A stretch of DNA of 64,000 bases from Minisyncoccia bacterium (GTDB lineage: Bacteria; Patescibacteriota; Minisyncoccia; UBA6257; 2-01-FULL-56-20). The notes beneath the pieces were generated by a model, which was not told the DNA's origin, made no database searches, and saw nothing but the letters and a program-made list of their open reading frames with translations. Numbering within the stretch: position 1 is the first letter of the stretch; each line of letters begins with the position of its first letter. Shown here piece after piece: positions 5,499 to 48,078 of the stretch. The stretch is taken from contig JBEKRC010000005.1 in NCBI GenBank assembly GCA_049997875.1, positions 1,679 to 65,678 on the forward strand, written 5' to 3'. The position numbers and the translations under genes were made by a program.

Positions 5499-5533
5499 CA
5501 TTTAATAATTTTTTAATGTCCCGCGAGTATAAT
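5499..5533 (+). promoter_or_regulatory. AT-rich promoter motif TTTAATAATTTTTTAATG plus gagTATAAT; near-leaderless for the 5541 gene
   Basis: Motif at 5499-5518 and TATAAT at 5528-5533. The ATG follows 7 nt later. The motif recurs upstream of accessory genes across the window. Confidence 0.5.
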
Positions 5534-5540
5534 ATTCGTA

Positions 5541-6071
5541 ATGGACATTATAGGGATCTTGAATTATCTCGGCATAACGCACGACAGGGCGCTTCCTTTC
5601 GCCATACTTATAGTGGCGATGATTTATATTAGCTATGCTTTTACCGCGCCGATAAAACGATCTGTCTCAAAAATATCCAACGCGATATTGGAGATACAGA
5701 CGATATTTCACCAGGATGGCGTGGAATTGAAATGTCATCTTGCAGAAGGAACAGGCAGCCCGCTACAGCCCACTCATTATGGGAAACAGCTCATTGTGGA
5801 GAGCGGCTTGGAAACCATCCTGAATGATAAGAAGGATTTTTTGAGGACGGTGCTGGCCAAGAAACTTCCGGAGAACTATACAGAGTACGATGTGCAGGAA
5901 AAGGCCCGCGAGCTTTTGATTGGGTTGAAAAGAGATCAGTTGATGAATCCCGTCAAAACATACGCGTACGAAAATGGAAAAGATATAGATATTATTTTGC
6001 GGGTTGGAGGTCTGTGGCTGAGGGATGATTTTATCGGGCAGGAAAGAAAGATAGTGCCCGAAAAAGGGTAG
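5541..6071 (+). CDS. hypothetical protein (low-GC)
   Basis: 176-aa ORF with an N-terminal hydrophobic segment. No recognisable domain. Confidence 0.45.
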   Translation: MDIIGILNYLGITHDRALPFAILIVAMIYISYAFTAPIKRSVSKISNAILEIQTIFHQDGVELKCHLAEGTGSPLQPTHYGKQLIVESGLETILNDKKDFLRTVLAKKLPENYTEYDVQEKARELLIGLKRDQLMNPVKTYAYENGKDIDIILRVGGLWLRDDFIGQERKIVPEKG

Positions 6072-6076
6072 GGTTG

Positions 6077-6110
6077 TTTTAATAATTTTTTAATGCACGG
6101 TGAGTATAAT
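6077..6110 (+). promoter_or_regulatory. AT-rich promoter motif TTTTAATAATTTTTTAATG plus gagTATAAT upstream of hicB
   Basis: Motif at 6077-6095 and TATAAT at 6105-6110. Confidence 0.5.
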
Positions 6111-6147
6111 ACTTTGCAAAGGTCGCAAAGCAAGTATTGTTATTTTT

Positions 6148-6399
6148 ATGGAGATGCCTACAATGGAATCTGTGAAGACAAAGTATAAATTTCCGTACAT
6201 CATTGAGCCGGACGAAGGCGGGTTTTATGCTACCTGTCCGGCCCTCAAAGGGTGTTCCACGCAGGGCGATACGTACGAAGAGGCACTCGCAAATATCAAA
6301 GAAGCAATCGAGGGCTATTTAGAGTGTCTTAAAAATGACGGAGAAGAAATTCCAACATCATCACATCATGGCTTGCCTACGGTAGAGATCGCCATCTAA
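6148..6399 (+). CDS. hicB: HicB-family antitoxin (UPF0150)
   Basis: YATCPALKGCSTQGDTYEEALANIKEAIEGYLE matches the HicB/UPF0150 signature. Start chosen at an internal Met of ORF 6100. Confidence 0.6.
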   Translation: MEMPTMESVKTKYKFPYIIEPDEGGFYATCPALKGCSTQGDTYEEALANIKEAIEGYLECLKNDGEEIPTSSHHGLPTVEIAI

Positions 6400-6402
6400 T
6401 CT

Positions 6403-6609
6403 ATGCCAAAACTTCCACGCCTCACCGCACGACAAGTAGCGGCTCGGCTAGAAGCGTGCAAGTTTTCGCTTTCACATCAGCGCGGGAGCCATAGATTTTA
6501 TCGTAATGCCGTCGGAAGATTGGTGACGGTCCCATTCCATGGCTCGCGCATCATCTGCCCCAAAACCCTGAAAGACATCATGCGCCAGGCGGGGATTGCG
6601 GAGTGGTGA
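6403..6609 (+). CDS. hicA: HicA-family mRNA interferase toxin
   Basis: 68 aa. LTARQVAARLEACKFSLSHQRGSHRFY...VTVPFHG...KDIMRQAGI is the YcfA/HicA pattern. Lies 4 nt after hicB. Confidence 0.7.
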   Translation: MPKLPRLTARQVAARLEACKFSLSHQRGSHRFYRNAVGRLVTVPFHGSRIICPKTLKDIMRQAGIAEW

Positions 6610-34365: not shown

Positions 34366-35349
34366 ATGAGCACGATCATAAAAACCGCAGAGTTCGTTTC
34401 GCCAAAACATCCGGACAAGGCCTGCGACCAGATCGCAGATGCGCTCCTGGACGCCTACCTCGCAGGCGACAAGCCGGGCAGACCGCGGAGCCGCGTGGCG
34501 GTTGAGGTGATGGGCGGCCACGGGCACATCACGATCTCGGGCGAGGTGACGAGCGGGACGCAGGTAGACATCCCGAAAGTGGTGAAGGGCCTCGTGGGAG
34601 AGGAATATGCCGTGCACCCGTACCTCACGAGGCAAAGCCCGCAGATCGCGCATGGCGTGGACACGGGCGGTGCGGGAGACCAGGGGATTATGATGGGCTA
34701 CGCGACGCGCGAAACGGAAAATTTCATGCCGGTGGAATACGAACTTGCGCGGAAATTGTGCCGGCAGATTTACGAAAAATATCCGTACGACGGGAAAACG
34801 CAGGTGACGGTGGAATGGCCGAACGGCGCGGGGAACGGAAAGCCAAAGGTGAGCACGGTCGTCGCGAGCTTCCAAAACACGAAATCGCCCGAGCTTGAAA
34901 AGTTCGTGCGTGGGATCGTTGCCGCGGACGAATATTTGATAAATCCCGCGGGCGAGTGGACGCTTGGCAGCTTTGATGCGGACTCTGGGCTTTCCGGCCG
35001 GAAGATCGTAATAGACAACTACGGGCCGGAGATTGGCGTGGGCGGCGGTTCGTTCTCAGGGAAGGATTACACGAAGGTGGACCGGTCGGGCGCGTACATG
35101 ACGCGGCGAATCGCGGTGGATTATCTAAAGAGCCATCCCGCGGCGAAGACCGCGCGCGCGAAGCTCGCCTACGCGATCGGAAAGGCTGAGCCCGTGATGG
35201 CGGTCGTAGAGGTGAATGGCGAAGAGTTCCCGATAGAAGGATACGATCTTACGCCGAAAGGAATTTTCGCGTTCCTGAAATTGAGCGAAGTGAAATGGAT
35301 AGAGACGGCCGCATGGGGCCACTTCGGGCGGGAATTCAGCTGGGGGTAG
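34366..35349 (+). CDS. metK: S-adenosylmethionine synthetase (short form)
   Basis: KHPDKACDQIADALLDAYL and GGAGDQGIMMGYA motifs. Confidence 0.85.
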   Translation: MSTIIKTAEFVSPKHPDKACDQIADALLDAYLAGDKPGRPRSRVAVEVMGGHGHITISGEVTSGTQVDIPKVVKGLVGEEYAVHPYLTRQSPQIAHGVDTGGAGDQGIMMGYATRETENFMPVEYELARKLCRQIYEKYPYDGKTQVTVEWPNGAGNGKPKVSTVVASFQNTKSPELEKFVRGIVAADEYLINPAGEWTLGSFDADSGLSGRKIVIDNYGPEIGVGGGSFSGKDYTKVDRSGAYMTRRIAVDYLKSHPAAKTARAKLAYAIGKAEPVMAVVEVNGEEFPIEGYDLTPKGIFAFLKLSEVKWIETAAWGHFGREFSWG

Positions 35350-37317: not shown

Positions 37318-38001
37318 ATGAAAAAGCTCGCCATTTTTGACATTGACGGGACGATCTTCCGGTCCAGTCTGCTCATTGAACTTGTGGACGCGTTGATTCA
37401 CGAGGGGATTTTCAAGCCAAGCGTGATGCGGATCTACGAGCGGGATAAACGCGCATGGCTTGACCGGAAGGGGGACTACGACGCCTATATTGAAAGCGTC
37501 ATCAGGGCGTTCCTCAAAAATATCAAAGGCGTGCCGTATGCCCGTTTCGCGCGCGTGGCGAAAAAAGTGGTCGCGCTCCACAAGAACCGCGTGTACCGCT
37601 ATACCCGCGATCTCGTTCGCGCTTTAAGGCGCAGGGGATATTGGCTCGTCGCGATCTCGCACTCGCCGCGCGGCGTTGTGGGACCGTTCGCCGCGCAGAT
37701 GGGATTCAATAAAGTGTACGGGCTGCTGTACGAACTCGGCCCCACGAGGCGGTTCAACGGGAAGGTGATGTTTGAGGATCTGATTTTTGACAAGGCGAAG
37801 ATCGTGGCGCGCGTGCTTGCGAAAGAGGGCGTCACGCTCAGCGGTTCCGTGGGCGTGGGGGATACGGAGAGCGACATTCCTTTTTTGAAGCTCGTCACCC
37901 GGGCGATCTGCTTCAATCCGAACGGAAAGCTTTACCGCGCGGCACGCCGCCACGGTTGGGAGATTGTCGTGGAGCGGAAGGACGTGGTGTATCGGATGTA
38001 G
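37318..38001 (+). CDS. HAD-superfamily hydrolase
   Basis: MKKLAIFDIDGTIF is HAD motif I. A downstream GVGDTESD segment is HAD motif IV. Confidence 0.7.
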   Translation: MKKLAIFDIDGTIFRSSLLIELVDALIHEGIFKPSVMRIYERDKRAWLDRKGDYDAYIESVIRAFLKNIKGVPYARFARVAKKVVALHKNRVYRYTRDLVRALRRRGYWLVAISHSPRGVVGPFAAQMGFNKVYGLLYELGPTRRFNGKVMFEDLIFDKAKIVARVLAKEGVTLSGSVGVGDTESDIPFLKLVTRAICFNPNGKLYRAARRHGWEIVVERKDVVYRM

Positions 38002-38009
38002 ATTTGATT

Positions 38010-38286
38010 TGGATTCTTAACGCTGGAAGCAACCAGGAGGACTGGGTTAAGGCCTTACCTGGAACTTAGCGCGGTGTGGTACTGCCCCTTTTTCGATTGT
38101 AAGTCGTGTAGGAGTTGCGCCTCGCACTCTCCCTCCTCCTGCCTCAGGCACTTGCCCGTCGGCTTAGACGGCGGCGTTTCAGCCACCGGCGTCAGGCGTT
38201 CGGAATCACCCTACTTGCCACGGGGGAGATGCTTTATCCCATACCACGAGGATTATTCAGCCACTACTTCCAGCGTTAAGAATCCA
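38010..38286. repeat. 277-bp element bounded by perfect 20-bp inverted repeats (MITE-like or long closing helix of a structured RNA)
   Basis: TGGATTCTTAACGCTGGAAG at 38010-38029 and its exact reverse complement at 38267-38286. The interior is GC-rich and ORF-poor with several hairpins. Confidence 0.4.
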
Positions 38287-38322
38287 ATAAAGATAACGGC
38301 GGCTCATTGCCGATGGTTACTA

Positions 38323-38360
38323 CTTTTTTAATATTTTTTTAATGCTCCGCGTGCAATGCT
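38323..38360 (+). promoter_or_regulatory. AT-rich promoter motif variant CTTTTTTAATATTTTTTTAATG upstream of paralog A
   Basis: Motif 38323-38344. Candidate -10 tgcaatgct at 38352-38360. Confidence 0.4.
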
Positions 38361-38366
38361 TGGCGG

Positions 38367-38792
38367 ATGGTACATCGTTATCGCGTGGATGAGAAAGGAG
38401 CAAAAAAGCTTTATAAGAAGATAGGAAGCGTATCTTGCAGTCTATTCGGCGGGGAGGCAGTATATTTCAATAGCATCGGATTTCGTCATCTTATTCTGAA
38501 GCATGGTGTCCAGAGGTCATCGCGTGAAATAAAAAGGCGCTTTGCCCTATTGCCTTACGTGGCGGAGATCGTCGAGAAATCGGGCAGGCTTATTTCTCGC
38601 AAGGAAAAAATCACGAATCGGCCAATCCATCGCCATGGAAAGCGGACCTATTCGCCTTCAAGAGCGACCTTCTGGACGCTTCGAGCAGGAGTGGACGGCA
38701 GGGACGTGACGGTAATTGTCCGGCAATTTCAAGGCGGCAAAAAACATTTTCTCAGCGTATACGATAAGAAAAACAAAAAACTCCCTTCGTAG
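38367..38792 (+). CDS. hypothetical small protein, paralog A of a two-member family in this window
   Basis: 141 aa. Shares VYFNSIGFRHLI...RRFALLPYV...FW...VIVRQ..GGKKHFLSVY with the 40346 gene (roughly 40% identity by eye). Confidence 0.5.
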   Translation: MVHRYRVDEKGAKKLYKKIGSVSCSLFGGEAVYFNSIGFRHLILKHGVQRSSREIKRRFALLPYVAEIVEKSGRLISRKEKITNRPIHRHGKRTYSPSRATFWTLRAGVDGRDVTVIVRQFQGGKKHFLSVYDKKNKKLPS

Positions 38793-38803
38793 GGGAGCTT
38801 TTT
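38781..38803 (+). terminator. intrinsic terminator overlapping the paralog A stop codon
   Basis: ctccc-ttcgtag-gggag followed by cttttt. Confidence 0.5.
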
Positions 38804-38804
38804 G

Positions 38805-38866
38805 ATATGCCCGCTTCAACGATATAGCCGAATGGGACTGACGCCCCGCGGGCATGGTTTTATTGT
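38805..38866 (+). other. conserved hairpin element, copy 1: outer stem atgcccgc/gcgggcat, core GCCGAATGGGAC-TGAC-GCCCC
   Basis: Family member. Compare 40737-40800 and the inverted copy at 40221-40270. The outer stems differ while the core is conserved. Confidence 0.45.
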
Positions 38867-38890
38867 GGGCGATTTTTCACACAAGTCAAG

Positions 38891-38913
38891 TTTCTTTTAA
38901 TAATTTTTTAATG
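38891..38913 (+). promoter_or_regulatory. AT-rich promoter motif TTTCTTTTAATAATTTTTTAATG upstream of xseA
   Basis: Exact motif copy. Confidence 0.45.
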
Positions 38914-39019
38914 TGTATGTTGTACCATGGATGCGGGCGTGATGCCTTTCACCATCGGCATGCCCCGAACTCCCGCAAGACCGCTCGCAAGAGCGGTTTT
39001 GTGCTGCTACAATAACCAT

Positions 39020-40168
39020 ATGAAGCCGCTGAACGCAGCCGACCATGTCTTCACGATTGGCGAATACATAGAGATCCTGAATACGTTCTTCAAGGCGCAG
39101 GCGGCGAGGATCAGGGGAGAGATCTCGGAGCTGCACCGTGACGCAAAGGGCCACGTCTACTTCGCGATTAAAGATAAAGATGACGGTAGTGTTTTAAGCT
39201 GCATCATCTGGAACCGCAATTACGATCTCTGCGGGGTAGTGCTTGAGGTGGGAATGGAGCTGATCCTCTCGGGGCACCCGAACATTTACGCGCCGAATGG
39301 GCGGCTGTCTTTCATTGCGGATACGGTGGAGCTCGTAGGCGAAGGAGCCTTGAAGAAAGCGTACGAAGCGCTTAAGCGAAAACTGGAAGCGGAGGGCGTG
39401 TTCGCGCCGGAGCGGAAGAGGCCGCTTCCGGAATATCCGACGCAGATCGGAGTTGTGACGTCCATGAAGGGCGCCGTGATCCACGATTTCCTGAATAACC
39501 TTGGGAAGTTCGGGTTCAGGGTGCGCGCGACGGATTCGCGCGTGGAGGGGCAGCAAGCGGTGGTACCTCTTTTGAACGCACTTGCCCTCATGCGGCGCGA
39601 GGCGCAGGCGGGGCGGCTGGACGTGCTCGTTTTGATCCGGGGCGGCGGGTCGCTCGAATCATTGCAGGCATTCAATAACGAAAAGCTTGTGCGCGAGATC
39701 GTGCATTTTCCGGTGCCCGTCGTCGCAGGGATCGGGCACGACAAGGATGTCCCCTTGTCGGCGCTCGCGGCGGATATTATGGTTTCCACGCCGACTGCCA
39801 CGGCGCATCTTTTGAGCAAGCCATGGGAGGAGGCGTACGCGAAAGTGAGGGAGGCGGCGTATCTTTTTTCCCGGGTGGAATCGCGATTTGAACGGATTCG
39901 CGCGGATCTGGACGCTGCGTGGAGTTCGGTGATTGACCACACGGCGCAGGGGATAGCGCATGCAAAGGAGATTTTTGCGAACGCCGAACGGCTGATTGCG
40001 CTCCATGATCCGCGCAGGCAGCTGCGACTCGGCTATGCGATCGTGCGGCACGGCGGCGAAGGAGGCGAGGCCGGTAAGCTCGTGCGGAGCATGCGGGATG
40101 TGGCCGCGGGAGATGTTTTGAACACGGAACTTGCGGACGGGGTGGTGAAGTCAAGGGTGGAGGAGTAG
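39020..40168 (+). CDS. xseA: exodeoxyribonuclease VII large subunit
   Basis: N-terminal OB-fold FTIGEYIEILNTFFKAQAARIRGEISELHRDAKGHVYFAIKD and catalytic core GGGSLESLQAFNNE...VAGIGHDKDVPLSALAAD. Confidence 0.8.
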   Translation: MKPLNAADHVFTIGEYIEILNTFFKAQAARIRGEISELHRDAKGHVYFAIKDKDDGSVLSCIIWNRNYDLCGVVLEVGMELILSGHPNIYAPNGRLSFIADTVELVGEGALKKAYEALKRKLEAEGVFAPERKRPLPEYPTQIGVVTSMKGAVIHDFLNNLGKFGFRVRATDSRVEGQQAVVPLLNALALMRREAQAGRLDVLVLIRGGGSLESLQAFNNEKLVREIVHFPVPVVAGIGHDKDVPLSALAADIMVSTPTATAHLLSKPWEEAYAKVREAAYLFSRVESRFERIRADLDAAWSSVIDHTAQGIAHAKEIFANAERLIALHDPRRQLRLGYAIVRHGGEGGEAGKLVRSMRDVAAGDVLNTELADGVVKSRVEE

Positions 40169-40180
40169 AAGTCAAATTTA

Positions 40181-40214
40181 TTTTAATAATTTTTTAATCT
40201 CTGCGTGCTATAAT
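40181..40214 (+). promoter_or_regulatory. AT-rich promoter motif TTTTAATAATTTTTTAAT plus gcTATAAT driving the small RNA at 40221
   Basis: Motif 40181-40198. TATAAT at 40209-40214. Confidence 0.5.
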
Positions 40215-40220
40215 AATCGT

Positions 40221-40299
40221 GTGCTTGGGGGACTAACGTCCCGTTCGGCCACCAAGCTGAGCCCAAGCACATCAAAGTCACCGCGCACGCGGTGTTTTT
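40221..40299 (+). ncRNA. candidate small RNA carrying an inverted copy of the hairpin family, with its own promoter and intrinsic terminator
   Basis: gtgcttggg-ggactaacgtcc-cgttcggcc-...-cccaagcac. Its reverse complement has GCCGAACGGGAC-GTTA-GTCCC. Ends with accgcg-cac-gcggtg plus a T run at 40280-40299. Confidence 0.4.
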
Positions 40300-40300
40300 G

Positions 40301-40338
40301 ATATTTTTTAAATATTTTTAATGCTCTTTTTTATATGA
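40301..40338 (+). promoter_or_regulatory. AT-rich promoter motif variant plus TTATATGAT -10; leaderless for paralog B
   Basis: atattttttaaatatttttaatg, then ttatatgat 7 nt before the ATG at 40346. Confidence 0.45.
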
Positions 40339-40345
40339 TGCGGCG

Positions 40346-40699
40346 ATGGGCTACCGCGAAACAAAAAAGAAGGCAAGAACGTTCTACTCAAATATGAAAC
40401 CAGCCATACCTCCCAGATTAGAGAAAACAGTTTTCTTCAACAACATAGGGTTTAGGCACCTCATTTGGAAAGGTGGAAAACATCGACCGAAAAGCGAGCA
40501 GACGAGGCGTTTCGCTCTGCTTCCTCACGTAGAAAAGATCATAAGCAATCCTGACGCAACGGTTCTTCGCAAGGTGAAGCACTACAGACCCGTCCGTGCG
40601 GAATTTTGGATCTTTAAAGAAAGGGTGGGGAAGATGATGATCACGGTGGTGATAAGGAGGATTGGGAACGGGAAAAGACATTTTTTCAGCGTTTATTAA
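40346..40699 (+). CDS. hypothetical small protein, paralog B
   Basis: 117 aa, VFFNNIGFRHLIW...RRFALLPHVEKII...FWIF...VVIRRIGNGKRHFFSVY. Inserted between xseA and xseB. Confidence 0.5.
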   Translation: MGYRETKKKARTFYSNMKPAIPPRLEKTVFFNNIGFRHLIWKGGKHRPKSEQTRRFALLPHVEKIISNPDATVLRKVKHYRPVRAEFWIFKERVGKMMITVVIRRIGNGKRHFFSVY

Positions 40700-40712
40700 G
40701 GGCATCAAAAAT

Positions 40713-40736
40713 CCGCTCAGGATTGAGCGGTTCTTT
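40713..40736 (+). terminator. intrinsic terminator after paralog B
   Basis: ccgctc-aggatt-gagcgg followed by ttcttt. Confidence 0.45.
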
Positions 40737-40800
40737 GATATGCCCGTTACCAGCCATGTAACGCCGATTAGGGACTTCCGTCCCACGGGCATACTCCCAT
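40737..40800 (+). other. conserved hairpin element, copy 3: outer stem atgcccg/cgggcat, core GCCGATTAGGGAC-TTCC-GTCCC
   Basis: Same architecture as copy 1. Confidence 0.45.
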
Positions 40801-40833
40801 TTTAGGGCAATCTATTCTTGAAAGTCAACTTTC

Positions 40834-40874
40834 TTTTAATGATTTTTTAATCTTTCGGCGATAAGGAGTATAAT
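40834..40874 (+). promoter_or_regulatory. AT-rich promoter motif TTTTAATGATTTTTTAATC plus gagTATAAT; leaderless for xseB
   Basis: TATAAT at 40869-40874. ATG at 40882. Confidence 0.5.
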
Positions 40875-40881
40875 AAACCCA

Positions 40882-41088
40882 ATGGCTGCGAAACCCGCGA
40901 AAGACGATTTCAAACATCATTTGGAGGAGATCGGAAAGATCCTTTCCTGGTTTGATGCGCAGGAGGAGCTGGATGTGGAAGCCGCGCTTCTGAAGATAAA
41001 AAAGGCGGCGGAGCTTATTAAGGCGAGCCGGAAGAGGCTTAAGGAGATTGAGAATGAATTTGAGGAGATAAAGGGGGAGACGGAGTAG
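40882..41088 (+). CDS. xseB: exodeoxyribonuclease VII small subunit
   Basis: 68-aa coiled-coil protein FKHHLEEIGKILSWFDAQEELDVEAALLKIKKAAELIKASRKRLKEIENEFEEI. Confidence 0.7.
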   Translation: MAAKPAKDDFKHHLEEIGKILSWFDAQEELDVEAALLKIKKAAELIKASRKRLKEIENEFEEIKGETE

Positions 41089-41094
41089 GGCGCA

Positions 41095-41382
41095 TTAACG
41101 GTCAACAAGCGCGATCTGCTTATTGAACACGTGCGCGATCCTGTACAGGGTTGCGAGAGATACGGGGTGTTTTCCAGATTCTATCCGCGCAACGACTGAT
41201 TGTGGCATAGATGCTTTCGCCGCCACTTGTTTCTGCGTCATGTTTTTCTTTTGCCGAAGCACCTTTATCTGATAGGCAAGGCGGAGGCGATTCACTTCTT
41301 CGGTGAACCCCTTTCTGAAGGCGGGGTTTTTAAGTTCTTCTTTTAGAACTTTCTCAAAGGGAATAAATTTCAGTTTTTCCAT
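41095..41382 (-). CDS. HTH XRE-family antitoxin (HigA-like)
   Basis: KNMTQKQVAAKASMPQSVVARIESGKHPVSLATLYRIAHVF is a helix-turn-helix. Overlaps the upstream toxin gene by 13 nt. Confidence 0.65.
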   Translation of the reverse strand: MEKLKFIPFEKVLKEELKNPAFRKGFTEEVNRLRLAYQIKVLRQKKNMTQKQVAAKASMPQSVVARIESGKHPVSLATLYRIAHVFNKQIALVDR

Positions 41383-41714
41383 GGCAGCTGTTTGAATGTT
41401 TTATATATTGCTTCCGCTTTTCTTATGATGCGGAGCGGTGTCTTTTGGGATTGTTTTTTGAACAAGGAGACAAAATAGATTGCCTCGCCGCTTTTGAAGA
41501 AAATCAGGCGATAGCGATGAACGATGAGTTCCTGAATGCCGCCACGGAGGGTTTTTATCGTAAGCGCCCCCACTTCTCCTTCTCGCAATAGTGTGAGATG
41601 CGCATAGATTTTGTCCTTCTCGTGCACGGGGAGGTCGGATAGTGCCCTGTAGAAATCATGAAGGAAATGAAGGGTGGTCATCAAGCGCCCTTCTCCCGGA
41701 TAGGAGTATAGCAA
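41370..41714 (-). CDS. RelE/ParE-superfamily toxin (HigB / phage Gp49-like); alternative start at Met12
   Basis: GIQELIVHRYRLIFFKSGEAIYFVSLFKKQSQKTP is the Gp49/HigB-like pattern. Toxin-first gene order with the XRE antitoxin. Confidence 0.6.
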   Translation of the reverse strand: MLYSYPGEGRLMTTLHFLHDFYRALSDLPVHEKDKIYAHLTLLREGEVGALTIKTLRGGIQELIVHRYRLIFFKSGEAIYFVSLFKKQSQKTPLRIIRKAEAIYKTFKQLPWKN

Positions 41715-41819
41715 AATTGCTATACCATTGTCAACGGTCCATTCAGAGAGGCCGGGCGTGGCTGCATGGTATCAAATAAGGGATTAAAACAATCTAAAGG
41801 CGCCTGCTATCAATGCGGC

Positions 41820-42401
41820 TTAAACCGCCTTCACCGTGAGCTCGTTGCGATAGGGCTCAAGGAGCTCAAGCCGGCCATCGGGCGCGATCCATTCCTTTTC
41901 CCTGCCCGGCGGAAGGATGGCGGGCATCCGGTCGTGGATGGGGGACATGGTCTTGTTCGCGGGCACGGTGATGATGGAGAAGAACGGCCGCATGGCGTCG
42001 GAAAGCGTTTTGGTCCTCCATTCGTAGATCCCTGCGAAGGCCATCGGGCGGTGTTCCAGCGTGAAGCGGTACTTCTCTCTCGCGCCGCCGGTCCTCTTCC
42101 ACTCGTAGAAGCCGTCCGCAAGGACAATGCAGCGATGGTTCTCCACGGCCTTGCGGAAGTAGGGCTTGCCGAGGATGCTTTCGGCCCTGATATTGATGAG
42201 CTCCTTCTTTCTGCCCTTGACCTCGGTGGGATAGCCCCAATGGCCGAGGATTATTTGGTTCGGCTCGCTCGCGAGCACGACGGGCAGGTTTTCGCTCGGG
42301 CGGGCGTCGTCCGTCACGAGATACGCCTCGTGGGGAGGGAGGACGCCGAAGTATTCGGCCAGATTCTTCACGGGGGTGGTGATGGCGTAGCGGCCGCACA
42401 T
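41820..42401 (-). CDS. yedK: SOS-response-associated peptidase (SRAP/YedK, abasic-site crosslinking protein)
   Basis: Starts MCGRYA, with the invariant Cys2. DUF159 pattern throughout. Confidence 0.8.
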   Translation of the reverse strand: MCGRYAITTPVKNLAEYFGVLPPHEAYLVTDDARPSENLPVVLASEPNQIILGHWGYPTEVKGRKKELINIRAESILGKPYFRKAVENHRCIVLADGFYEWKRTGGAREKYRFTLEHRPMAFAGIYEWRTKTLSDAMRPFFSIITVPANKTMSPIHDRMPAILPPGREKEWIAPDGRLELLEPYRNELTVKAV

Positions 42402-42676
42402 GAGGTAACTATAGCGCTCGCCATCAATTTCGCCATTTTCCTGCGCTCCTCTCTGACGTCCATGCACCAGGCGTGGCCTCTCACGGTGATCACAAGTTCA
42501 AGGAATTCGGGGAGGTTTTTCTTGAGAGTTTTGTGGGGAGATTTTTGGTAGAGGGCGAGCTTTTTCTTGGCGCGGTAGTATTCGTCGGGAGACATAGGGT
42601 GATCTTTGATCGGGAGGGGAGGGTGAGTCAAGGGGGTAAGGCCCCAATTGAACATTAAGGAGGAAAGAGGTAGGGT

Positions 42677-42706
42677 TTTAATAAAGATTTAATGATTTTT
42701 TAATCT
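42677..42706 (+). promoter_or_regulatory. AT-rich promoter motif variant TTTTAATAAAGATTTAATGATTTTTTAATC upstream of the NucS-like gene
   Basis: Shares the TTTAATAAAGATTTAATGA variant with the copy at 48041. Confidence 0.4.
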
Positions 42707-42710
42707 TTCC

Positions 42711-43700
42711 ATGGAAAAGGTGGGGCAGCCTATGAACCATTCTTTGTTTGTGCTTACCGCCAGTAATCCTGAAGCGTATCAGCACTATATCGATACGATT
42801 GAGCGTGGCTTTCCTATTAACGATATTAAGGAGTTTCTGAGTGAAGATCAGTATATTGCCCTAAGGAATCTTTGCGGGGAAGAGCATCTTAAGGCTTGGG
42901 GTGCTACCCCGGGGAAGGGTAATATTGCCACTTGGAACAAGATGAATATCGGCGACCCGATCCTTATTTATAGACAAGGTAATTTTGAATATTACGCTTT
43001 TATTGCATTCAAGTTGCATAATGTTGAAATAGCAAAAAAGTTATGGCGGACGAACATAAAGGGAGAAACATGGGAATATGTCTACTTTTTAGATAAGCTG
43101 ACAGAAATTTCGGTTCCGGTGAAAATATTTAACGAAAGCATTGGTTATAAAGACAACTTTACGCCACAGGGTTTTAGTTCTGTTGATAAGAAGAAAGTGG
43201 ATTATTTGAAGGAGAAATTTGGATCGATTGAATCATTTCTTAATTATCTGGCAGAAGGGAAATGGATAGAGAGGGAAACCGCATATCCAAGGGAGGTTAA
43301 GGAGACCATTATTCAAGAAAGAGTTTCTCGACAGCTTGGACGCACCTCTTTACTTGAAGCGAACCTCGAAAATTATTTAGCGGATCGTGTTGCCCAGATT
43401 GAACCCGGTTTGAAATTAATTGGTCGACAGTTGGATACAAAAGAAGTCGGGCGGTTGGATCTGCTTTGTGAAGATAAGGATAAAAATTTGGTGGTCGTTG
43501 AATTGAAGCGGGGAACCGCAGGTTCATCAATTATTGATCAGATTCAGCGATACATGGGTTGGATGATCGCTCATAAGGCTCAGCCGAATCAAAAGGTGAG
43601 AGGCATTGTTATTGTGGCGTCCAAAGATACTGCGCTTGAATATGCGGTCAAAGCTAACCCGATGGTGCAGATAAAGACGTTTAATATCAGCGTGCAATAA
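42711..43700 (+). CDS. NucS/EndoMS-like PD-(D/E)xK nuclease (DUF91) with a non-NucS N-terminal domain, possibly PUA/EVE-like; candidate modification-dependent or defense nuclease
   Basis: C-terminus IEPGLKLIGRQLDTKEVGRLDLLCEDKDKNLVVVELKRGTAGSSIIDQIQRYMGWM...KVRGIVIVAS matches the NucS C-terminal nuclease (IEPGFK...GIVDVLGRDSDGNIVVLELKRRRA...KVRGILVAPS). The N-terminal 190 aa (W..N.GDPILIYRQGN..YYAFIAF) differs from the NucS N-domain. GC is about 38%. Confidence 0.6.
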   Translation: MEKVGQPMNHSLFVLTASNPEAYQHYIDTIERGFPINDIKEFLSEDQYIALRNLCGEEHLKAWGATPGKGNIATWNKMNIGDPILIYRQGNFEYYAFIAFKLHNVEIAKKLWRTNIKGETWEYVYFLDKLTEISVPVKIFNESIGYKDNFTPQGFSSVDKKKVDYLKEKFGSIESFLNYLAEGKWIERETAYPREVKETIIQERVSRQLGRTSLLEANLENYLADRVAQIEPGLKLIGRQLDTKEVGRLDLLCEDKDKNLVVVELKRGTAGSSIIDQIQRYMGWMIAHKAQPNQKVRGIVIVASKDTALEYAVKANPMVQIKTFNISVQ

Positions 43701-43760
43701 GTTTCAGTAAGTGAAGCGTTAGGATGGTATTGTGAGTAAATAAAACCGTAGAAAGATAAG

Positions 43761-44081
43761 ATGATTCATAATAAAAATATTTCTTGGTTGCCTCTAACGA
43801 GTTTCATCTGTCTACTTAGTCTTGTGTTTAGTGTCGGCACAATAATGAACCCTTATATTGGCATTTTCTTTGGTGCGTCGTTTACTATATTAGGCGCCGC
43901 AACAGCAGTTTTCCCTAAAGAGATAGCAGAACTTGGAAGAATGTGGTCGCAAAATATCGAAAGAGAGACACATATTTTCCTTATTGCATTTTCTGTTGCC
44001 TGTGCATTAATATTCTTTTGGGCGCGGTATATCGAAGGCTGGAGAATAAAGATCTATAACATTAATTATTCAAATGAATAA
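43761..44081 (+). CDS. small membrane protein (2-3 TM)
   Basis: 106 aa, very AT-rich. Overlaps the next ORF by 8 nt. Confidence 0.4.
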   Translation: MIHNKNISWLPLTSFICLLSLVFSVGTIMNPYIGIFFGASFTILGAATAVFPKEIAELGRMWSQNIERETHIFLIAFSVACALIFFWARYIEGWRIKIYNINYSNE

Positions 44082-44757
44082 ATATTTAAAAGCAATCATT
44101 CAGGGATTATTTATATTAGGGATTGCTGCATTTGCGATATGGTTTCTCAATCTTTTTATTCCAAAGAACCAAGGTGCAGATGTAGCTAACCGAGTTGCTG
44201 ATCAAGTGAAGCAAATTATCTTAAAAAGGCCGACATGTGCTGGAACGTCCGCAGAATTTGAGCAGTTGAAAGAGCAGGGCGGTTATATCCCGCTTCTGCA
44301 GAGTTCAACTGGCATGTATGGAATAGCAGGCGGCGATTTCGTGAATGAGAAACAAGTTACCGTAAATCGTACAGGGAGTGGTTCAGAGGTTGCTTGTGGA
44401 TATTTATATATCAATGCTGGCGTGGGGAAGAGAGCGCTAGATAATGAAGATGTCTACATAGTTCCGGGGGGATTCGGCGGACATCTACAATCTAGCGCCG
44501 CGATTATTAATCAAATCGTAAATTCGAGTACGGAAATGATTTTTTCCTTGGATAACATACAATACCGCAGCAATAAAAACATGTATACTGCAAACTGGGC
44601 TGCGTTACTAAACGTGTCAAACGAAATTAATTTTGAAATTGCATTGAACACCACTGACCCAAGGGGTTTCATTAATGAGGTCGGAATTGCATACAAATGT
44701 TGGAATCCTCAAACTGGCGATGTAACGACGGACTGTCGCTTAAGTGCTCAGCAATAG
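44074..44757 (+). CDS. N-terminally anchored or secreted protein
   Basis: 227 aa. An N-terminal hydrophobic helix is followed by a Cys-containing domain. Confidence 0.4.
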   Translation: MNKYLKAIIQGLFILGIAAFAIWFLNLFIPKNQGADVANRVADQVKQIILKRPTCAGTSAEFEQLKEQGGYIPLLQSSTGMYGIAGGDFVNEKQVTVNRTGSGSEVACGYLYINAGVGKRALDNEDVYIVPGGFGGHLQSSAAIINQIVNSSTEMIFSLDNIQYRSNKNMYTANWAALLNVSNEINFEIALNTTDPRGFINEVGIAYKCWNPQTGDVTTDCRLSAQQ

Positions 44758-44777
44758 CATATTAAAAGATCTCGAGA

Positions 44778-44803
44778 AATCGTGGCTTTTGCACTTTTAC
44801 GAG
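44778..44803 (+). promoter_or_regulatory. promoter-like TTGCAC-14-gagTATAAT upstream of the large structured RNA
   Basis: ttgcac at 44778-44783 and tataat at 44798-44803. The gagTATAAT -10 form is shared with the cassette promoters. Confidence 0.35.
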
Positions 44804-44811
44804 GAGAGTAT

Positions 44812-45165
44812 AATGAAGCTCGTAGTAGTTCTTTAAAAGCTGGCGGAGAAAACCATCGGGGCCTTATTTAGTTATTCAGAGTTTTTCCCACTCCCCCTCG
44901 TTAGGGCGTTAGAGAGCTAGTGCCTTAACCGGGGGGGGTTGTAGTCGGAACTCTCCGAACAAATTAATCTAACCAACCCTAATGGTTACCTTAACTACGG
45001 GGCAGACGGTGGTTATTTCGGGCATCTACCAGGTGCGCGGAACCAACTACCAGGTTACTCTCTCGCGCGGAGATCGCGTGCCACCCTACAACGGGAGGGC
45101 AGCGACCTTCGTTCTGGTCGTTTCGGCCAGACACGAACAGTAATGTTCTGCCGTTCTTCGCCAGC
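44812..45165 (+). ncRNA. roughly 350-nt structured non-coding RNA of unknown class
   Basis: 435-nt ORF-free interval between convergent genes. GC is higher than the flanking genes. Perfect 12-bp long-range helix taaaagctggcg (44824-44835) / cgccagctttta (45149-45160). Many internal hairpins (tcgga-actct-ccga, aacca-accctaa-tggtt, tctgg-tcgtttcgg-ccaga, cgcg-gagat-cgcg) and repeated CTACCAGG segments. No RNase P, tmRNA or 6S hallmark motifs were found. Confidence 0.5.
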
Positions 45166-45192
45166 TTTTAGAGAGATACTTTGATAAAAGAG

Positions 45193-46092
45193 TCAGCCGA
45201 TCGGACTATTTTTCGGAGCTTCAATTTTTAACGACAACTCAGTCATCGCGTAGTGAACAAATTGTTGTCCGATGCCAGTTAATTCATATTGTTCCTCTTC
45301 GTCGAATGCAGATTTGGCAGTATGCGTCCCTGAACTTTTTGGTGTTCTCCCTGTAGCTCTTGATACAATTATATTTCCCGCATAATCTCTATCTTTATGT
45401 TGTCGAATTATGGCACCAGTGCTTAAGTCGCGGAAAAGAAGCTTGAACAAATCTGCTTCTGGGGAATCTTCTCTAACGGGTTGTTTGCCTAGCTGTCTCC
45501 AAACTTCTCCTCTGGTTATTCCATTTTTGTTATAAATTACTCCTATAACTTTGAAATGAAGTTCAGAATAATTTTTGAGCCAATCGAGAAAGAGCTTTAT
45601 GACATCATCGCTCACTAGCGCGGTTGCCGCGGCATTAGAAAGAATATTTCTTATTAATTTCCTTTTCTCTTCACTTTCAGCTCCGGACCATTCCCGAAAT
45701 GCTTTTTTAACAATGGACTGATATTCCGGACTCTTCATTCGTTCTCCGATCTTTGCATCGTGCATATCAAGGCGAGCCATGATCTCTACGATGGTTTGTT
45801 CTTTTTCCCGCATTTCATCAAAGAGCATTCGTAGCCAATGTTTAAAGAAGGCATTCGCTCTTTCCTGATCATGACCTTCCCACGCGCTCGCGGCCGCAGA
45901 GAAGATTCCGCCTATGACGGGAATTGCCCCTCCTGCAATTTCCATACCTGCTTGCAAGACTTTCTTGCCGAGTTTTGGTTTGTGGTCGGAAGCAATCGTC
46001 GCAATCACTTTGCCACAAAACGGACAATTTTCGGATAAGTAAGGTATTTCCTTGCCGCATTCGCCACACTTTATTGGTTCCATGTTTTCCAT
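45193..46092 (-). CDS. hypothetical protein with N-terminal zinc-ribbon
   Basis: KCGECGKEIPYLSENCPFCGK at the N-terminus, then a roughly 270-aa soluble domain of unknown function. Convergent with the ncRNA. Confidence 0.5.
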   Translation of the reverse strand: MENMEPIKCGECGKEIPYLSENCPFCGKVIATIASDHKPKLGKKVLQAGMEIAGGAIPVIGGIFSAAASAWEGHDQERANAFFKHWLRMLFDEMREKEQTIVEIMARLDMHDAKIGERMKSPEYQSIVKKAFREWSGAESEEKRKLIRNILSNAAATALVSDDVIKLFLDWLKNYSELHFKVIGVIYNKNGITRGEVWRQLGKQPVREDSPEADLFKLLFRDLSTGAIIRQHKDRDYAGNIIVSRATGRTPKSSGTHTAKSAFDEEEQYELTGIGQQFVHYAMTELSLKIEAPKNSPIG

Positions 46093-46162
46093 CCTATACC
46101 CCCGTCGGGGTTCGTCAATCCAAACGATTTACAAAACCGTTCTGAGGTGATACCATCCGGCC

Positions 46163-46642
46163 ATGAGCACAAAGGAGCTTGTCGCGGAAATAGAGAAACG
46201 CTTTGAGATTATATTGCCCATATCAATCTTTTTTCCAGTTCTGATGGCCACGTATTTTGATATTGTTGGTGGACCGGACAAAGATTATCATACCGCGTTC
46301 ATATTTTTTGCCCTGCCGGCGCTCTATATCGCAAGCTATGTTATCTTCGAGCTTCGTAAAATTTTACCACCTATCCCGCCGTTGGCGCTTCAAGTATTGG
46401 ACTGGAGCCTGTTGCTGAACATTCTTTGTTTCGCTGCACCCGTCATATTCGTTGTCATGGCATATGCTCATGTGACGCTCTCGCGGTGGACTTATTTGGT
46501 TGATCTGTGGACTTTCATCGGCTCAGGGTGGGGAGTAGTTACTTTGCCGTTTGCCATTTTCCTTTTTGTTATCGCGAGTGAAGCGATTGCTATAGCAGCG
46601 AAAGTTATAGGTAAACAGTGGGCAAATAAAAAGATTTTCTAA
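46163..46642 (+). CDS. hypothetical membrane protein (4 TM)
   Basis: 159 aa, hydrophobic. Confidence 0.45.
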   Translation: MSTKELVAEIEKRFEIILPISIFFPVLMATYFDIVGGPDKDYHTAFIFFALPALYIASYVIFELRKILPPIPPLALQVLDWSLLLNILCFAAPVIFVVMAYAHVTLSRWTYLVDLWTFIGSGWGVVTLPFAIFLFVIASEAIAIAAKVIGKQWANKKIF

Positions 46643-46669
46643 TTAAAGACAGGCTTGGACATGGATTCG

Positions 46670-46790
46670 TCGCGGGGCCGGTAAGACCGGCCCGCTCCTG
46701 CGGAACCTCTCGGTTCCGCACTGTGCCGCCGCAAAACGGTGCGAGCGGCACCTTCCTACACGGGGCACCTCCCGGTGCCCCGACCCCCTC
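46670..46790. other. cluster of four consecutive perfect GC-rich hairpins upstream of dinB
   Basis: gcgg(g)gccgg-taag-accggcccgc, gcggaacc-tctc-ggttccgc, gtgccgc-cgcaaaacggtgcga-gcggcac, ggggcacc-tccc-ggtgcccc. Possible outer pairing cgcgggg/ccccgcg. Confidence 0.3.
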
Positions 46791-46829
46791 CCCGCGTCTA
46801 GGTCTAGTGCGGTGTAGTATGGTTATGAG

Positions 46830-47939
46830 ATGAGAATTGTTGCGCACATAGACCTAGACGCTTTCTTTGCGGCGATAGAAGAAAGAGACAGAACGCGGTT
46901 GAGGGGGTTGCCGATTGTGGTGGGCGCGGATCCGGAGGAGGGGCGGGGACGGGGGGTTGTGTCTACGGCGAATTATAAGGCGCGGGAATATGGGATCCGG
47001 TCTGCTTTGCCGATCGCGACGGCGTGGCGATATTCGGAGGCGGCACGGAGGAAGGGGCTCGCGCCTGCGGTCTTTCTTGGGGTTGATATGGAAAAATATG
47101 CGGAGGAGTCGCGGCGCGTGATGGGGATCGTGCGCGAGGTTTTGGGGGCCACGGCGCTTGTGGAAGAGGCGTCGGTGGACGAGGCGTTTATTGATCTATC
47201 CTTTGCGGGTACCTACCTGCGCGCGGAGGCGGTGGCGCGTGAGGTGAAGCGCGCGATCAAAGAAAGAACGGGACTCACGGCATCCGTGGGCGTGGGGCCG
47301 AACAAGCTTATTGCGAAGATCGCCTCGGACCGGGAGAAGCCGGACGGGTTCACGCTCGTGCGCGAAGAGGATGCGGAAAAATTCCTTGAGCCCTTGCCGA
47401 TCCGCACGATCCCGGGCGTGGGACCGAAAACCGAGGCGCGGTTCAGGGAGCTCCGCGTGCGCACGGTGGGGGATGCAAAGCGCTTCTCGCGTGAGGAGCT
47501 TACGGAGATGCTGGGCAAGTGGGGCGCGGAACTTTATGAAAAACTGCGCGGGCGGGACGAGTCGCCGCTCGTTACGGAGTGGATCGCGAAGTCTGTGGGG
47601 GAGCAGGAGACCTTTCCGCACGACACGCACGATCCGAAGTTCCTGCGCGAGCGGCTGGCGGCGCTTGCGGCGGGGGTCTACGCGCGGTTCGCGGCCGAGG
47701 CCCGGGCGGGGCACTTTAAAAGCTTCCGCGGCGTCACGATCACCGTCCGCTTCGCGGATTTCACGACCGTCACGCGCGCGGCGACGCTTGATGAGCCCGT
47801 CGTGGCCCGCGACCCCGCGGCGCTTCAAACACTCCAGTTCCAGGCCTTGCGCCTCTTCATGCCCTTCCTTGACCGCCGCGAGAATCCCGCGCGCAAGGCC
47901 TTCCGGCTCCTCGGGGTGCGCGTGGAGAAGCTGGGTTAG
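46830..47939 (+). CDS. dinB: DNA polymerase IV (Y-family translesion polymerase)
   Basis: MRIVAHIDLDAFFAAIEERDRTRLRGLPIVVG...STANYKAREYGIRSALPIATA. Confidence 0.85.
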   Translation: MRIVAHIDLDAFFAAIEERDRTRLRGLPIVVGADPEEGRGRGVVSTANYKAREYGIRSALPIATAWRYSEAARRKGLAPAVFLGVDMEKYAEESRRVMGIVREVLGATALVEEASVDEAFIDLSFAGTYLRAEAVAREVKRAIKERTGLTASVGVGPNKLIAKIASDREKPDGFTLVREEDAEKFLEPLPIRTIPGVGPKTEARFRELRVRTVGDAKRFSREELTEMLGKWGAELYEKLRGRDESPLVTEWIAKSVGEQETFPHDTHDPKFLRERLAALAAGVYARFAAEARAGHFKSFRGVTITVRFADFTTVTRAATLDEPVVARDPAALQTLQFQALRLFMPFLDRRENPARKAFRLLGVRVEKLG

Positions 47940-48040
47940 GGTTGGTCCCAAAAATCGAAACCCCTCTCGGGGAGAGGGGTTTCTCGGAGGCCGAAGCCCA
48001 TTGTGATTCCAGTATAGCAGAAATGGAGCAACCGTCAAAT

Positions 48041-48078
48041 TTCTTTTAATAAAGATTTAATGACCGTTGTGCTATGGT
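48041..48078 (+). promoter_or_regulatory. AT-rich promoter motif variant TTCTTTTAATAAAGATTTAATG plus extended -10 TGcTATGGT
   Basis: Upstream of the 48097 gene pair. Confidence 0.4.

Follow-up and report, generated by a model that had tools for sequence, protein, structure and literature searches.

Toxin genes, nucleases, small paralogous genes and small RNAs lie in the window, the whole 64,000-nucleotide stretch analysed here, which comes from a metagenome-assembled genome of the Minisyncoccia (Paceibacteria, CPR). In front of them recurs a 19-base, all-A/T box in which two TTTAAT units are set one turn of the DNA apart.

The box and its copies in the window

The box has a direct repeat as its core, TTTAAT-N5-TTTAAT-(G/C), in 11-bp phase. 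Allowing up to 3 mismatches, TTTTAATAATTTTTTAATG had 10 matches in the window, compared with 0.00 in 100 dinucleotide shuffles, and the relaxed core TTTAAT-N5-TTTAAT, with up to 1 mismatch, had 13, against a mean of 0.25 by chance; the overall chance expectation for copies in the window is thus 0 to 0.25. All 13 copies are intergenic, 10 on the plus strand and 3 on the minus strand (Table 1), and more than 40 further TTTAAT-N5-TTTAAT instances were found outside the window. The nine copies listed in the earlier note all exist, with offsets of 0 to 4 nt, although the one at 40305 is a weak variant (19.5 bits, versus at least 28 for the others) and the three minus-strand copies had been missed. 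The hexamers vary in a base-specific manner (TTTAAG, TTTAAC, TTTTAG) and not by A/T swaps. The sub-variant TTTAATAAAGATTTAATG, said to be common to the copies at 42676 and 48044, is indeed present in both; it recurs in other genomes, in L054 and, in similar forms, in L086 and L087.

Table 1. Box copies in the window and the promoter elements around them (Nx, spacer of x nt; the plus-strand 19-mers start at the first position given for each box)
Location	Strand	Box	Promoter elements	Downstream feature
3404-3455	-	ATTTAATAAAAATTTAATG 3422-3404, AAAAA-spacer sub-variant	no same-strand -10	
3404-3455	+	as above, other side	N5, TTGACA 3428-3433, N16, TACACT 3450-3455	
4015-4087	-	GTTTTAGCTTTTTTTAATG 4049-4031, TTTTAG distal variant	N10, TATGGT 4020-4015	ATG about 4005, PBECR3 toxin-like gene
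4015-4087	+	as above, other side	N9, TTGCCA 4059-4064, N17, AATAAT 4082-4087	rpoD ATG 4101
5500	+	ATTTAATAATTTTTTAATG 5500-5518	N9, TATAAT 5528-5533	leaderless ATG 5541, 176-aa protein
6077	+	TTTTAATAATTTTTTAATG at 6077	N9, TATAAT 6105-6110	hicB-hicA promoter; leader begins with inverted repeat CTTTGCaaaggtcGCAAAG
25763-25829, bidirectional	-	25796-25778	N9, TACAAT 25768-25763	tRNA-like RNA
25763-25829, bidirectional	+	as above, other side	TTGACA 25802-25807, N16, TATACT 25824-25829	
38326	+	TTTTAATATTTTTTTAATG at 38326	TGCAAT 38352-38357	ATG 38367, 141-aa LPD3-like paralogue
38883-38928	+	38895-38913	GTCAA 38885-38889, N5, box, N9, TACCAT 38923-38928	xseA promoter
40169-40214	+	40181-40199	GTCAA, N5, box, N9, TGc-TATAAT 40209-40214	structured-RNA promoter
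40305	+	TTTTTAAATATTTTTAATG at 40305, weak	N10, TATGAT 40334-40339	ATG 40346, 117-aa LPD3-like paralogue
40790-40874, bidirectional	+	40834-40852	N16, TATAAT 40869-40874	xseB ATG 40882
40790-40874, bidirectional	-	as above, other side	TTGACT 40828-40823, N18, TAAAAT 40804-40799	
42676-42710	+	starts 42676/42687; TTTAAT at 42677, 42688, 42699	11-bp phase	ATG 42711, NucS_C-domain nuclease
48011-48078, bidirectional	+	48044-48062	N10, TGc-TATGGT 48073-48078	PBECR2 toxin-like gene pair
48011-48078, bidirectional	-	as above, other side	TTGACG 48038-48033, N16, TATACT 48016-48011	

Several of these sites have counterparts in relatives. The 5500 promoter and its gene are also present in L016 (96% aa identity), and at the hicBA promoter the box, the -10 and the inverted repeat are conserved in L016 and L037. 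The RNA driven from the 40181 box, about 80 nt long, structured and ending in an intrinsic terminator (about 40220-40302), has its equivalent at 2666 in L087, with the same box, -10 and RNA 5' end; the L087 homologue of the 40346 gene (2781-3212, inverted) likewise has a box promoter. The earlier note had also placed the box in front of xseA, which is correct for this genome but not for two close relatives, in which xseA is operonic and lacks it.

At 38326 the box and the preceding gene's stop codon overlap, and the 42676/42687 site, with three hexamers in 11-bp phase (42676-42705), is divergent to a minus-strand operon of a 95-aa ORF and SRAP. The tRNA-like RNA (about 25756-25681) lies upstream of a pterin-4a-carbinolamine dehydratase gene, and the 3404 box is located between convergent genes, where the plus-strand transcript would be antisense to the PBECR3 toxin gene. 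Simple ORF rules appear to have miscalled the starts of xseA and of the PBECR3-like toxin gene (3532-4026, minus strand).

Two promoter layouts

In the main layout the box is followed after 9-10 nt by a TAnnnT -10 hexamer, and the start codon comes 6-9 nt later, as seen at 5541, 38367, 40346, 40882 and about 4005 (minus strand), in agreement with the near-leaderless mRNAs proposed before. There is no -35 element: the box itself occupies about -40 to -22, and the hexamer at the -35 position, ATAATT, matches TTGACA at 2 of 6 bases. The box is a promoter-associated element with a fixed relation to the -10, as had been claimed. The 9-10 nt spacing to TAnnnT is found in 8 of the 13 copies, a count that includes 38326 (CAATGC at 9 nt or TGCAAT at 7). 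Deviating from it in the window are 40834 (16 nt), 3422 (no -10) and the 42676/42687 array, in which the last TTTAAT is itself 6 nt before the ATG. Among the non-redundant metagenome matches with a GC content of at least 0.44 (n=19), the spacing was 9 nt in 14, 10 nt in four and 8 nt in one; the AT-rich, chance-like matches had a flat distribution (10:9:11). Atypical spacings occur elsewhere, of 27 nt in L088 and 3 nt in L037.

In the second layout, the box is reverse-complemented and stands a fixed 5 nt from the TTGACn -35 of a divergent promoter of canonical type, where it covers about -41 to -59. Of 54 instances, 14 have GTCAA exactly 6 nt before their distal TTTAAT, and in 11 of these 14 a TAnnnT follows 16-18 bp further on, on the other strand. 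The box then ends in a AAAAGAAAG-like proximal subsite, with an A-tract beside the TTGAC -35.

Box promoters coexist in the window with TTGACA-N17/18-TATAAT promoters; infA (PF01176) uses TTGACA-N18-TATAAT, as previously described. Many further promoters of this genome are also -10-only and leaderless. The sigma-A encoded in the window has canonical regions 4.2 and 2.4, so sigma itself should not read the box. This RpoD also carries a 45-residue Lys/Arg-rich N-terminal extension.

Related genomes and a candidate regulator

Comparison with relatives, as the earlier note had suggested, revealed the box, with unchanged spacing, in related small genomes as well, where it is found at the promoters of MetAP, RseP, FtsX, ComEC and a response regulator. 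Box-like matches with the same spacing are also present in Saccharibacteria, Gracilibacteria and Dojkabacteria MAGs. Box density is high in a hypervariable island (HAD..dinB), an interval completely different among three close relatives, and low in the relatives' conserved regions (about 1 per 20 kb). Most housekeeping promoters are without the box. Its exclusion from such promoters, asserted earlier, holds inside the window but not in the relatives, and in the window itself the rpoD -35 is preceded, at a distance of 9 nt, by a copy in reverse complement. Similarly, the bias in the window towards TA toxins, nucleases, small paralogous genes and small RNAs fits the proposed accessory/stress regulon, but MetAP, RseP, FtsX and ComEC do not.

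The response regulator is a 223-aa OmpR-family protein (Response_reg plus Trans_reg_C), and its own promoter has the box in 10 of the 11 orthologues examined, in two synteny contexts: FKBP-RR in nine (L012, L017, L049, L069, L082, L085, L086, L089 and L090) and FtsX-RR-HK-RadC in L091. In L082 and L085 this is the only box in 20 kb. A comparison of seven orthologous response-regulator promoters, whose proteins share about 65-86% identity, found nothing conserved but the box and the -10. The regulator family is widespread in Paceibacterota. With tblastn no regulator gene was found in the 64-kb window; the gene is present in the close relatives L082 (898-kb contig) and L085 (829-kb contig). Note that P0134 (L083/L084), one related lineage of the regulator, lacks the box both at its promoter and in the surrounding 14-18 kb. 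The closest solved relatives of the regulator's DNA-binding domain are PcoR, DrrD and PhoP; BasR ranks well below.

Known systems and the possible reader of the box

The sites of PhoB are tandem repeats in 11-bp phase that lie 10 bp before the -10, and PhoB's own two-component genes belong to its regulon (PMC1906773). As occurs with the class II pho box of E. coli, here 11-bp-phased direct repeats replace the -35, the final base of the repeat lies 10 bp away from the -10 and the candidate regulator's own promoter is included. The differences are the half-site (TTTAAT, versus CTGTCAT-type for PhoB), the leaderless transcripts and the second, inverted class-I-like layout with its fixed 5-nt gap to the divergent -35. 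Membership of the Pho regulon is contradicted by the half-site together with the lack of phosphate-acquisition targets, no pst or pho gene being found among about 35 downstream genes examined.

In half-site and spacing the box is essentially identical to the PmrA/BasR box (YTTAAK-N5-YTTAAK): the sequence bound by PmrA of A. baumannii is TTTAAG-N5-TTTAAG, with HTTAAD-N5-HTTAAD as its generalised form (PMC10927774), which TTTAAT-N5-TTTAAT fits. We nevertheless rejected membership of that regulon, since the candidate is no PmrA orthologue, with a DNA-binding domain nearer PcoR, DrrD and PhoP, and the targets, in another phylum, are TA genes, nucleases, small RNAs and others and not LPS-modification genes. 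PhoP sites occur in both orientations relative to the gene (PMC2681069). PhoP/WalR-type hexamer-N5-hexamer boxes have a different half-site, and the box described here is unusually invariant and frequent.

The direct-repeat half-sites at 10-11 bp phasing, the replacement of the -35 and the boxed regulator promoter are all as in OmpR/PhoB class II systems. We propose, at about an even chance of being right, that the box is the operator of an autoregulated OmpR/PhoB-family response regulator in this Paceibacteria lineage, used from class II and class I positions. Of the three alternatives raised before, a site for a dedicated regulator fits best, but the candidate is this OmpR-family gene outside the window and not the neighbouring XRE, PadR or ECF factors. 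We infer that the OmpR-family protein binds the box and activates rather than represses. Two winged-helix domains would sit head-to-tail on the two TTTAAT hexamers, 11 bp or one helical turn apart. The position of the main-layout box, from -40 to -22 and ending 10 bp before the -10 hexamer in place of the missing -35, suggests that the bound regulator would make contact with sigma region 4 or alpha of RNA polymerase, like PhoB at pho boxes, and switch on sigma-A-type, mostly leaderless transcripts. Because the same box, inverted 5 nt upstream of a TTGACn -35, also occupies a class I position, one bound dimer could serve two divergent promoters. The regulator would control its own gene through its own box, within a large regulon of roughly one box per 5-20 kb that would comprise TA/toxin genes, small paralogous accessory genes, nucleases (ExoVII subunits, NucS-like) and small RNAs, with ComEC, MetAP, RseP and FtsX added in relatives. 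For a single response regulator such a regulon is very large, amounting to some 100 sites in a 0.9-Mb genome.

The regulator gene could also be one more target of another factor. Some other DNA-binding protein, such as a global repressor or silencer acting on accessory genes, may then use the box as its operator, a reading that we consider rather unlikely. The box overlaps the polymerase footprint and could occlude it, and since many promoters of this genome are -10-only and leaderless, and such promoters appear sufficient here, an activator is not logically required and repression by occlusion is possible. The enrichment in a hypervariable island with toxins and nucleases, and the one regulator lineage without the box, are in line with this. 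However, polymerase-contacting activators, and not occluding repressors, typically keep such strict distances to the -10 and to the divergent -35, the direct-repeat hexamer-N5-hexamer is an OmpR/PhoB family signature, and the box stays with the regulator gene across the two synteny contexts.

The UP element is an A/T-rich alpha-CTD site at -40 to -60, upstream of the -35 hexamer. That the box belongs to polymerase itself, as an UP-like element or -35 substitute marking a strong constitutive class with no dedicated regulator, and read for instance by the alpha-CTDs or by the very basic sigma-A N-terminal tail, seems to us unlikely. The all-A/T composition and the T-tracts phased at 11 bp are expected of an RNAP-contact or curvature element too; the distance to core promoter elements is fixed in both layouts, the box is very frequent and precedes unrelated genes, and the RpoD extension could supply the contact. 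The UP-element likeness noted earlier holds for the inverted layout only (14 of 54 instances), in which the box lies directly upstream of the TTGAC -35 with its proximal subsite adjoining; in the main layout it is downstream of the place where alpha-CTD binds. Against this reading also stand the canonical sigma regions, the coexisting TTGACA-N17/18-TATAAT promoters, the absence from most housekeeping promoters and the hexamer- and base-specific conservation, unlike that of natural UP elements or minor-groove A/T readers.

A broader version, in which the box is a lineage-specific promoter grammar of Patescibacteria, a compact, portable, bidirectional, -35-less module read directly by polymerase and exchanged with accessory cassettes across CPR classes, appears doubtful to us; contact would be made, for example, through the sigma-A extension or an altered alpha-CTD.

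Finally, small mobile gene cassettes might have the box as their conserved end or recombination site, or might carry it along as a portable promoter spread by their mobility. This idea is highly improbable: the boxed LPD3-like paralogues (38367, 40346), inverted at the same locus in L087, and the wholly different HAD..dinB intervals speak for it, but similarity from copy to copy extends over no more than about 32 nt, the repeat is direct, with no inverted-repeat or att-like (attC) structure, the strict pattern had 0 matches in 2.9 million viral contigs, the fixed relation to the -10 shows promoter function, and orthologous core promoters (regulator, hicB) have retained the box while their flanks fully diverged.

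To our knowledge, almost nothing is known about gene regulation in the ultra-small, largely uncultured CPR/Patescibacteria, and our literature search turned up no description of this motif, or of promoter motifs in CPR. This high-information box would point to a candidate master regulator and give a testable regulon of toxins, nucleases, ExoVII, ComEC, small RNAs and the regulator itself. It would also allow promoter-based correction of start codons, as for xseA and the PBECR3-like toxin gene, and would offer emerging CPR genetics a set of compact, leaderless and possibly bidirectional promoter parts of about 45 bp.

Copies and anatomy of the box

The A/T promoter box is a genuine feature, statistically overwhelming and conserved across a CPR lineage. 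In the window, the 19-mer TTTTAATAATTTTTTAATG occurs 10 times at ≤3 mismatches vs 0 in 100 dinucleotide-preserving shuffles, and the relaxed core TTTAAT-N5-TTTAAT (≤1 mismatch) is present 13 times, compared to the 0.25 expected. A position-weight scan together with direct reading of the window produced the 13 copies tabulated below. They include all nine copies reported in the earlier note, at positions differing by ≤4 nt, although that list had overlooked three copies on the minus strand. In the window, 13/13 copies are intergenic or abut a stop codon. Their strictly intergenic position, their orientation and their link to a -10 led us to discard a DNA-uptake sequence or a terminator.

What is conserved at the core is two TTTAAT hexamers in direct repeat across an A/T-rich spacer of 5 bp (11-bp phasing), and the base after them is mostly G or C. 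Of the two hexamers, conservation is stronger in the promoter-proximal one, and hexamer variation is base-specific (TTTAAG, TTTAAC, TTTTAG). Three hexamers lie in phase at 42676-42705. Mutual similarity between copies stops at about 32-34 nt; thus, they are not copies of a longer repeat, and the suggestion of the earlier note that the box could be the end of mobile cassettes is not supported. That it serves as a recombination site is very improbable.

Box copies and other features of the window
Position	Strand	Feature	Gene or RNA preceded, or description
5500	+	box	176-aa protein without assigned function
6077	+	box	hicB-hicA
38326	+	box	LPD3-like small protein, 38% identical to its paralogue after box 40305
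38895	+	box	xseA
40181	+	box	roughly 80-nt RNA, strongly structured, with terminator
40305	+	box (weak)	LPD3-like small protein
40834	+	box, layout 2	xseB
42676, 42687	+	boxes	NucS_C-domain nuclease; divergent 95-aa ORF and SRAP operon
48044	+	box, layout 2	PBECR2 toxin-like pair
25796	-	box, layout 2	tRNA-like RNA, 5' of the pterin-4a-carbinolamine dehydratase gene
4049	-	box	PBECR3 toxin-like gene
3422	-	box, layout 2	
3428-3531	+	promoter	consensus-like TTGACA-N16-TACACT between two convergent genes
4101-4240	+	RpoD extension	roughly 45 residues, Lys/Arg/Pro-rich, before region 1.1; histone-H1/AT-hook-like composition
5353-5434, 24749-24830	+	82-nt repeat pair	85% identical; first copy just past the rpoD stop codon
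6111-6135	+	hicBA leader	inverted repeat CTTTGCaaaggtcGCAAAG straight after the -10
25681-25756	-	tRNA-like cloverleaf	directly after box 25796; GGTTCGA T-loop, extended acceptor stem
about 25631-25637		apparent -10	the dehydratase gene's own
34169-34286	+	SAM (S-box) riboswitch	51.7 bits, 5' of a 327-aa ORF (34366-35349)
38000-48100		hypervariable island	between the HAD hydrolase gene and dinB; TA modules, SRAP, NucS-like nuclease; low-GC genes (43-46% GC) at 42-46 kb
about 40220-40302	+	RNA of box 40181	two nested hairpins and intrinsic terminator
58949-61936	+	leucyl-tRNA synthetase	995 aa; behind its editing domain, an inserted NUDIX domain (residues about 409-511)

Also encoded in the window are dnaG, rpoD, aminoacyl-tRNA synthetases and numerous proteins that match no Pfam family. 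The window's proteins are on record under 'Minisyncoccia bacterium' MAGs, and peat and soil metagenomes are the source of the contigs. Boxes occur about once per 5 kb here, compared with about once per 7-20 kb in the sampled conserved regions, so the box is enriched at accessory genes. In two close relatives (L087 and L088, whose DinB belongs to the same 90%-identity cluster as that of the window), the interval from the HAD hydrolase gene to dinB differs wholly in content from the window and from each other, with a restriction-modification system and an IS481 transposase in L087 and an ABC transporter in L088. Their xseA is operonic and carries no box; L087 has an LPD3-like homologue that lies in inverted orientation behind a box promoter of its own. 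Box promoters may travel together with accessory genes.

The RNA of box 40181 has an MFE of -45.8 kcal/mol (z = -6.3), and its promoter and 5' end are kept 3' of xseA in L087 (about 2666-2780). ARAGORN calls the cloverleaf after box 25796 a tRNA, its anticodon loop 8 nt long (cgac), only once the threshold is lowered, and the cloverleaf did not match the Rfam tRNA model. Rfam reported only the SAM riboswitch and tRNA-Pro, with no match for the RNAs after boxes. The L088 counterpart of the ORF behind this riboswitch is annotated S-adenosylmethionine synthetase. The hicBA inverted repeat, which is kept in three genomes (this one, L016 and L037), may serve HicB as an operator or stabilise the 5' end as a hairpin. 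The 82-nt repeat folds as a long hairpin (GAAAATGTGCC...GGCACATTTTC) enclosing a GC-rich inner stem (z = -3.3); it could be a terminator or a structured element of another kind. Transcripts from the promoter at 3428 would be antisense to the PBECR3 toxin-like gene (3532-4026, minus strand) in its 3' part; because no immunity gene is evident, an antisense RNA antitoxin is possible.

Two promoter layouts

In layout 1, a same-strand TAnnnT -10 (TATAAT, TACAAT, TATGGT or similar), extended by TGn in about one third of cases, lies 9-10 nt after the box. The box thereby covers about -40 to -22, with ATAATT, which is unlike TTGACA, at the -35 position. Start codons follow 6-9 nt past the -10 at five box promoters (5541, 38367, 40346, 40882 and, on the minus strand, about 4005), and the mRNAs are therefore leaderless, in agreement with the near-leaderless transcripts proposed in the earlier note.

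In layout 2, GTCAA lies exactly 6 nt 5' of the distal TTTAAT (14/54 instances, window and related loci). Because an opposite-strand TAnnnT follows 16-18 bp beyond it in 11/14, we read GTCAA as the TTGAC -35 that belongs to a canonical promoter running divergently. The 11-bp phase would also fit GTCAA as a third half-site, but the divergent -35 explains it better. Relative to the divergent promoter, the box is at about -41 to -59, and the same-strand -10 is missing in some instances. A reverse-complement copy also lies 9 nt 5' of the rpoD promoter (TTGCCA-N17-AATAAT). Housekeeping promoters of the window are either -10-only and leaderless or of the type TTGACA-N17/18-TATAAT, the latter seen at infA, as previously noted.

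An UP-like element recognised by RNA polymerase itself would suit layout 2 and the A/T composition, but it misfits layout 1 and the base-specific conservation, and we consider it unlikely. Since the -35 and -10 recognition regions (4.2 and 2.4) of the window's sigma-A are canonical, recognition of the box by sigma itself is not expected, which also dismisses the box as a novel -35 for a divergent sigma-A. An SOS/LexA-type regulon, suggested by xseA, xseB, SRAP and dinB, was rejected: the box is a direct repeat and not a palindrome, dinB has its own promoter without a box, and uvrA, uvrB, uvrC and xseA of relatives lack it.

Distribution and the OmpR-family regulator

The strict 33-nt pattern (box, N8, S, TAnnAT) had zero matches in 2.9 M viral contigs, and we rejected a phage origin on this ground. 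Among GTDB species-representative genomes it gave 21 single matches, one per genome, a scan that found relatives but no regulon. Five of the 21 belong to named Patescibacteria lineages (Saccharibacteria twice, Gracilibacteria, Dojkabacteria and 'Patescibacteria group'), and six are MAGs of 46-59% GC sharing the leaderless layout; in several of the six the chromosome or contig measures 0.83-0.91 Mb. A metagenome scan added 57 loci. In non-redundant metagenome matches with GC ≥ 0.44, the box-to-(-10) spacing was 9 in 14, 10 in 4 and 8 in 1, vs a flat 10:9:11, as by chance, in AT-rich matches. L016 is syntenic with window 5500-6100, keeping both promoters, and its 176-aa protein is 96% identical.

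Elsewhere the genes preceded by the box include hicB (three more times), ComEC, MetAP, RseP, FtsX, ArsR, NYN, an HNH-like protein and an alpha/beta hydrolase. At L089 1239-1420 and L011 about 5551 (both plus strand), a variant of the box promoter (TTTAATTGTGTTTTAATG-N10-TATACT) lies before a conserved transcript of roughly 140 nt between gtrA and murB, with 5' end GAGTATGGAGTCGGCTAGAGAGCACTC, a 3' terminator and no Rfam match.

A recurrent gene after the box encodes an OmpR-family response regulator (223 aa, Response_reg and Trans_reg_C domains), very conserved in Paceibacterota (>120 clusters at ≥63% identity). It is not encoded in the window, where tblastn found no copy. The pattern scan placed its gene after a box in four loci (L012, L017, L049, L069). 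Further orthologues were picked by protein, independently of the motif, from five loci with FKBP-RR synteny (RR, the regulator; L082, L085, L086, L089, L090) and one with FtsX-RR-HK-RadC synteny (L091). In 6/6 the regulator promoter carries a box 9-10 nt 5' of the -10, and in L082 and L085 this is the sole box in 20 kb. Only in the P0134 regulator lineage (L083/L084) was the box absent from this promoter. Alignment of seven regulator promoters revealed that flanks and spacer have fully diverged while box and -10 are conserved.

A putative response-regulator box

Similar boxes are known. PhoB reads tandem repeats in 11-bp phase, placed 10 bp before the -10, and has its own two-component genes in its regulon (PMC1906773), PhoP recognises hexamers 5 bp apart in either orientation (PMC2681069), and Acinetobacter baumannii PmrA binds TTTAAG-N5-TTTAAG, generalised as HTTAAD-N5-HTTAAD (PMC10927774). 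The window box shares the architecture of the OmpR/PhoB-family boxes and fits the PmrA consensus. However, its half-site is not CTGTCAT, and it targets neither phosphate nor LPS genes. In its DNA-binding domain, the regulator resembles PcoR, DrrD and PhoP more than BasR, so that a PmrA orthologue is unsupported. The box works like the pho and PmrA boxes but belongs to neither regulon, since half-site, targets and DNA-binding domain differ.

Given the OmpR/PhoB-type architecture and the canonical sigma-A regions, we favour an autoregulated response regulator; another transcription factor or a silencer at this site is unlikely. We give an even chance to the box being a previously undescribed response-regulator box with pho-box-like anatomy, the binding itself being deduced from sequence. 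The regulator would bind as a head-to-tail dimer and contact RNA polymerase, its position being class II in layout 1 and class I in layout 2. It would presumably sense a signal. That the spacings are fixed speaks for activation, but the regulator might instead repress by occlusion, given that a -10 alone seems to suffice for promoters of this genome. Literature searches turned up neither this motif nor any account of promoter motifs in CPR. The box is of moderate to good interest, since it opens a first way into the control of transcription in Paceibacteria.
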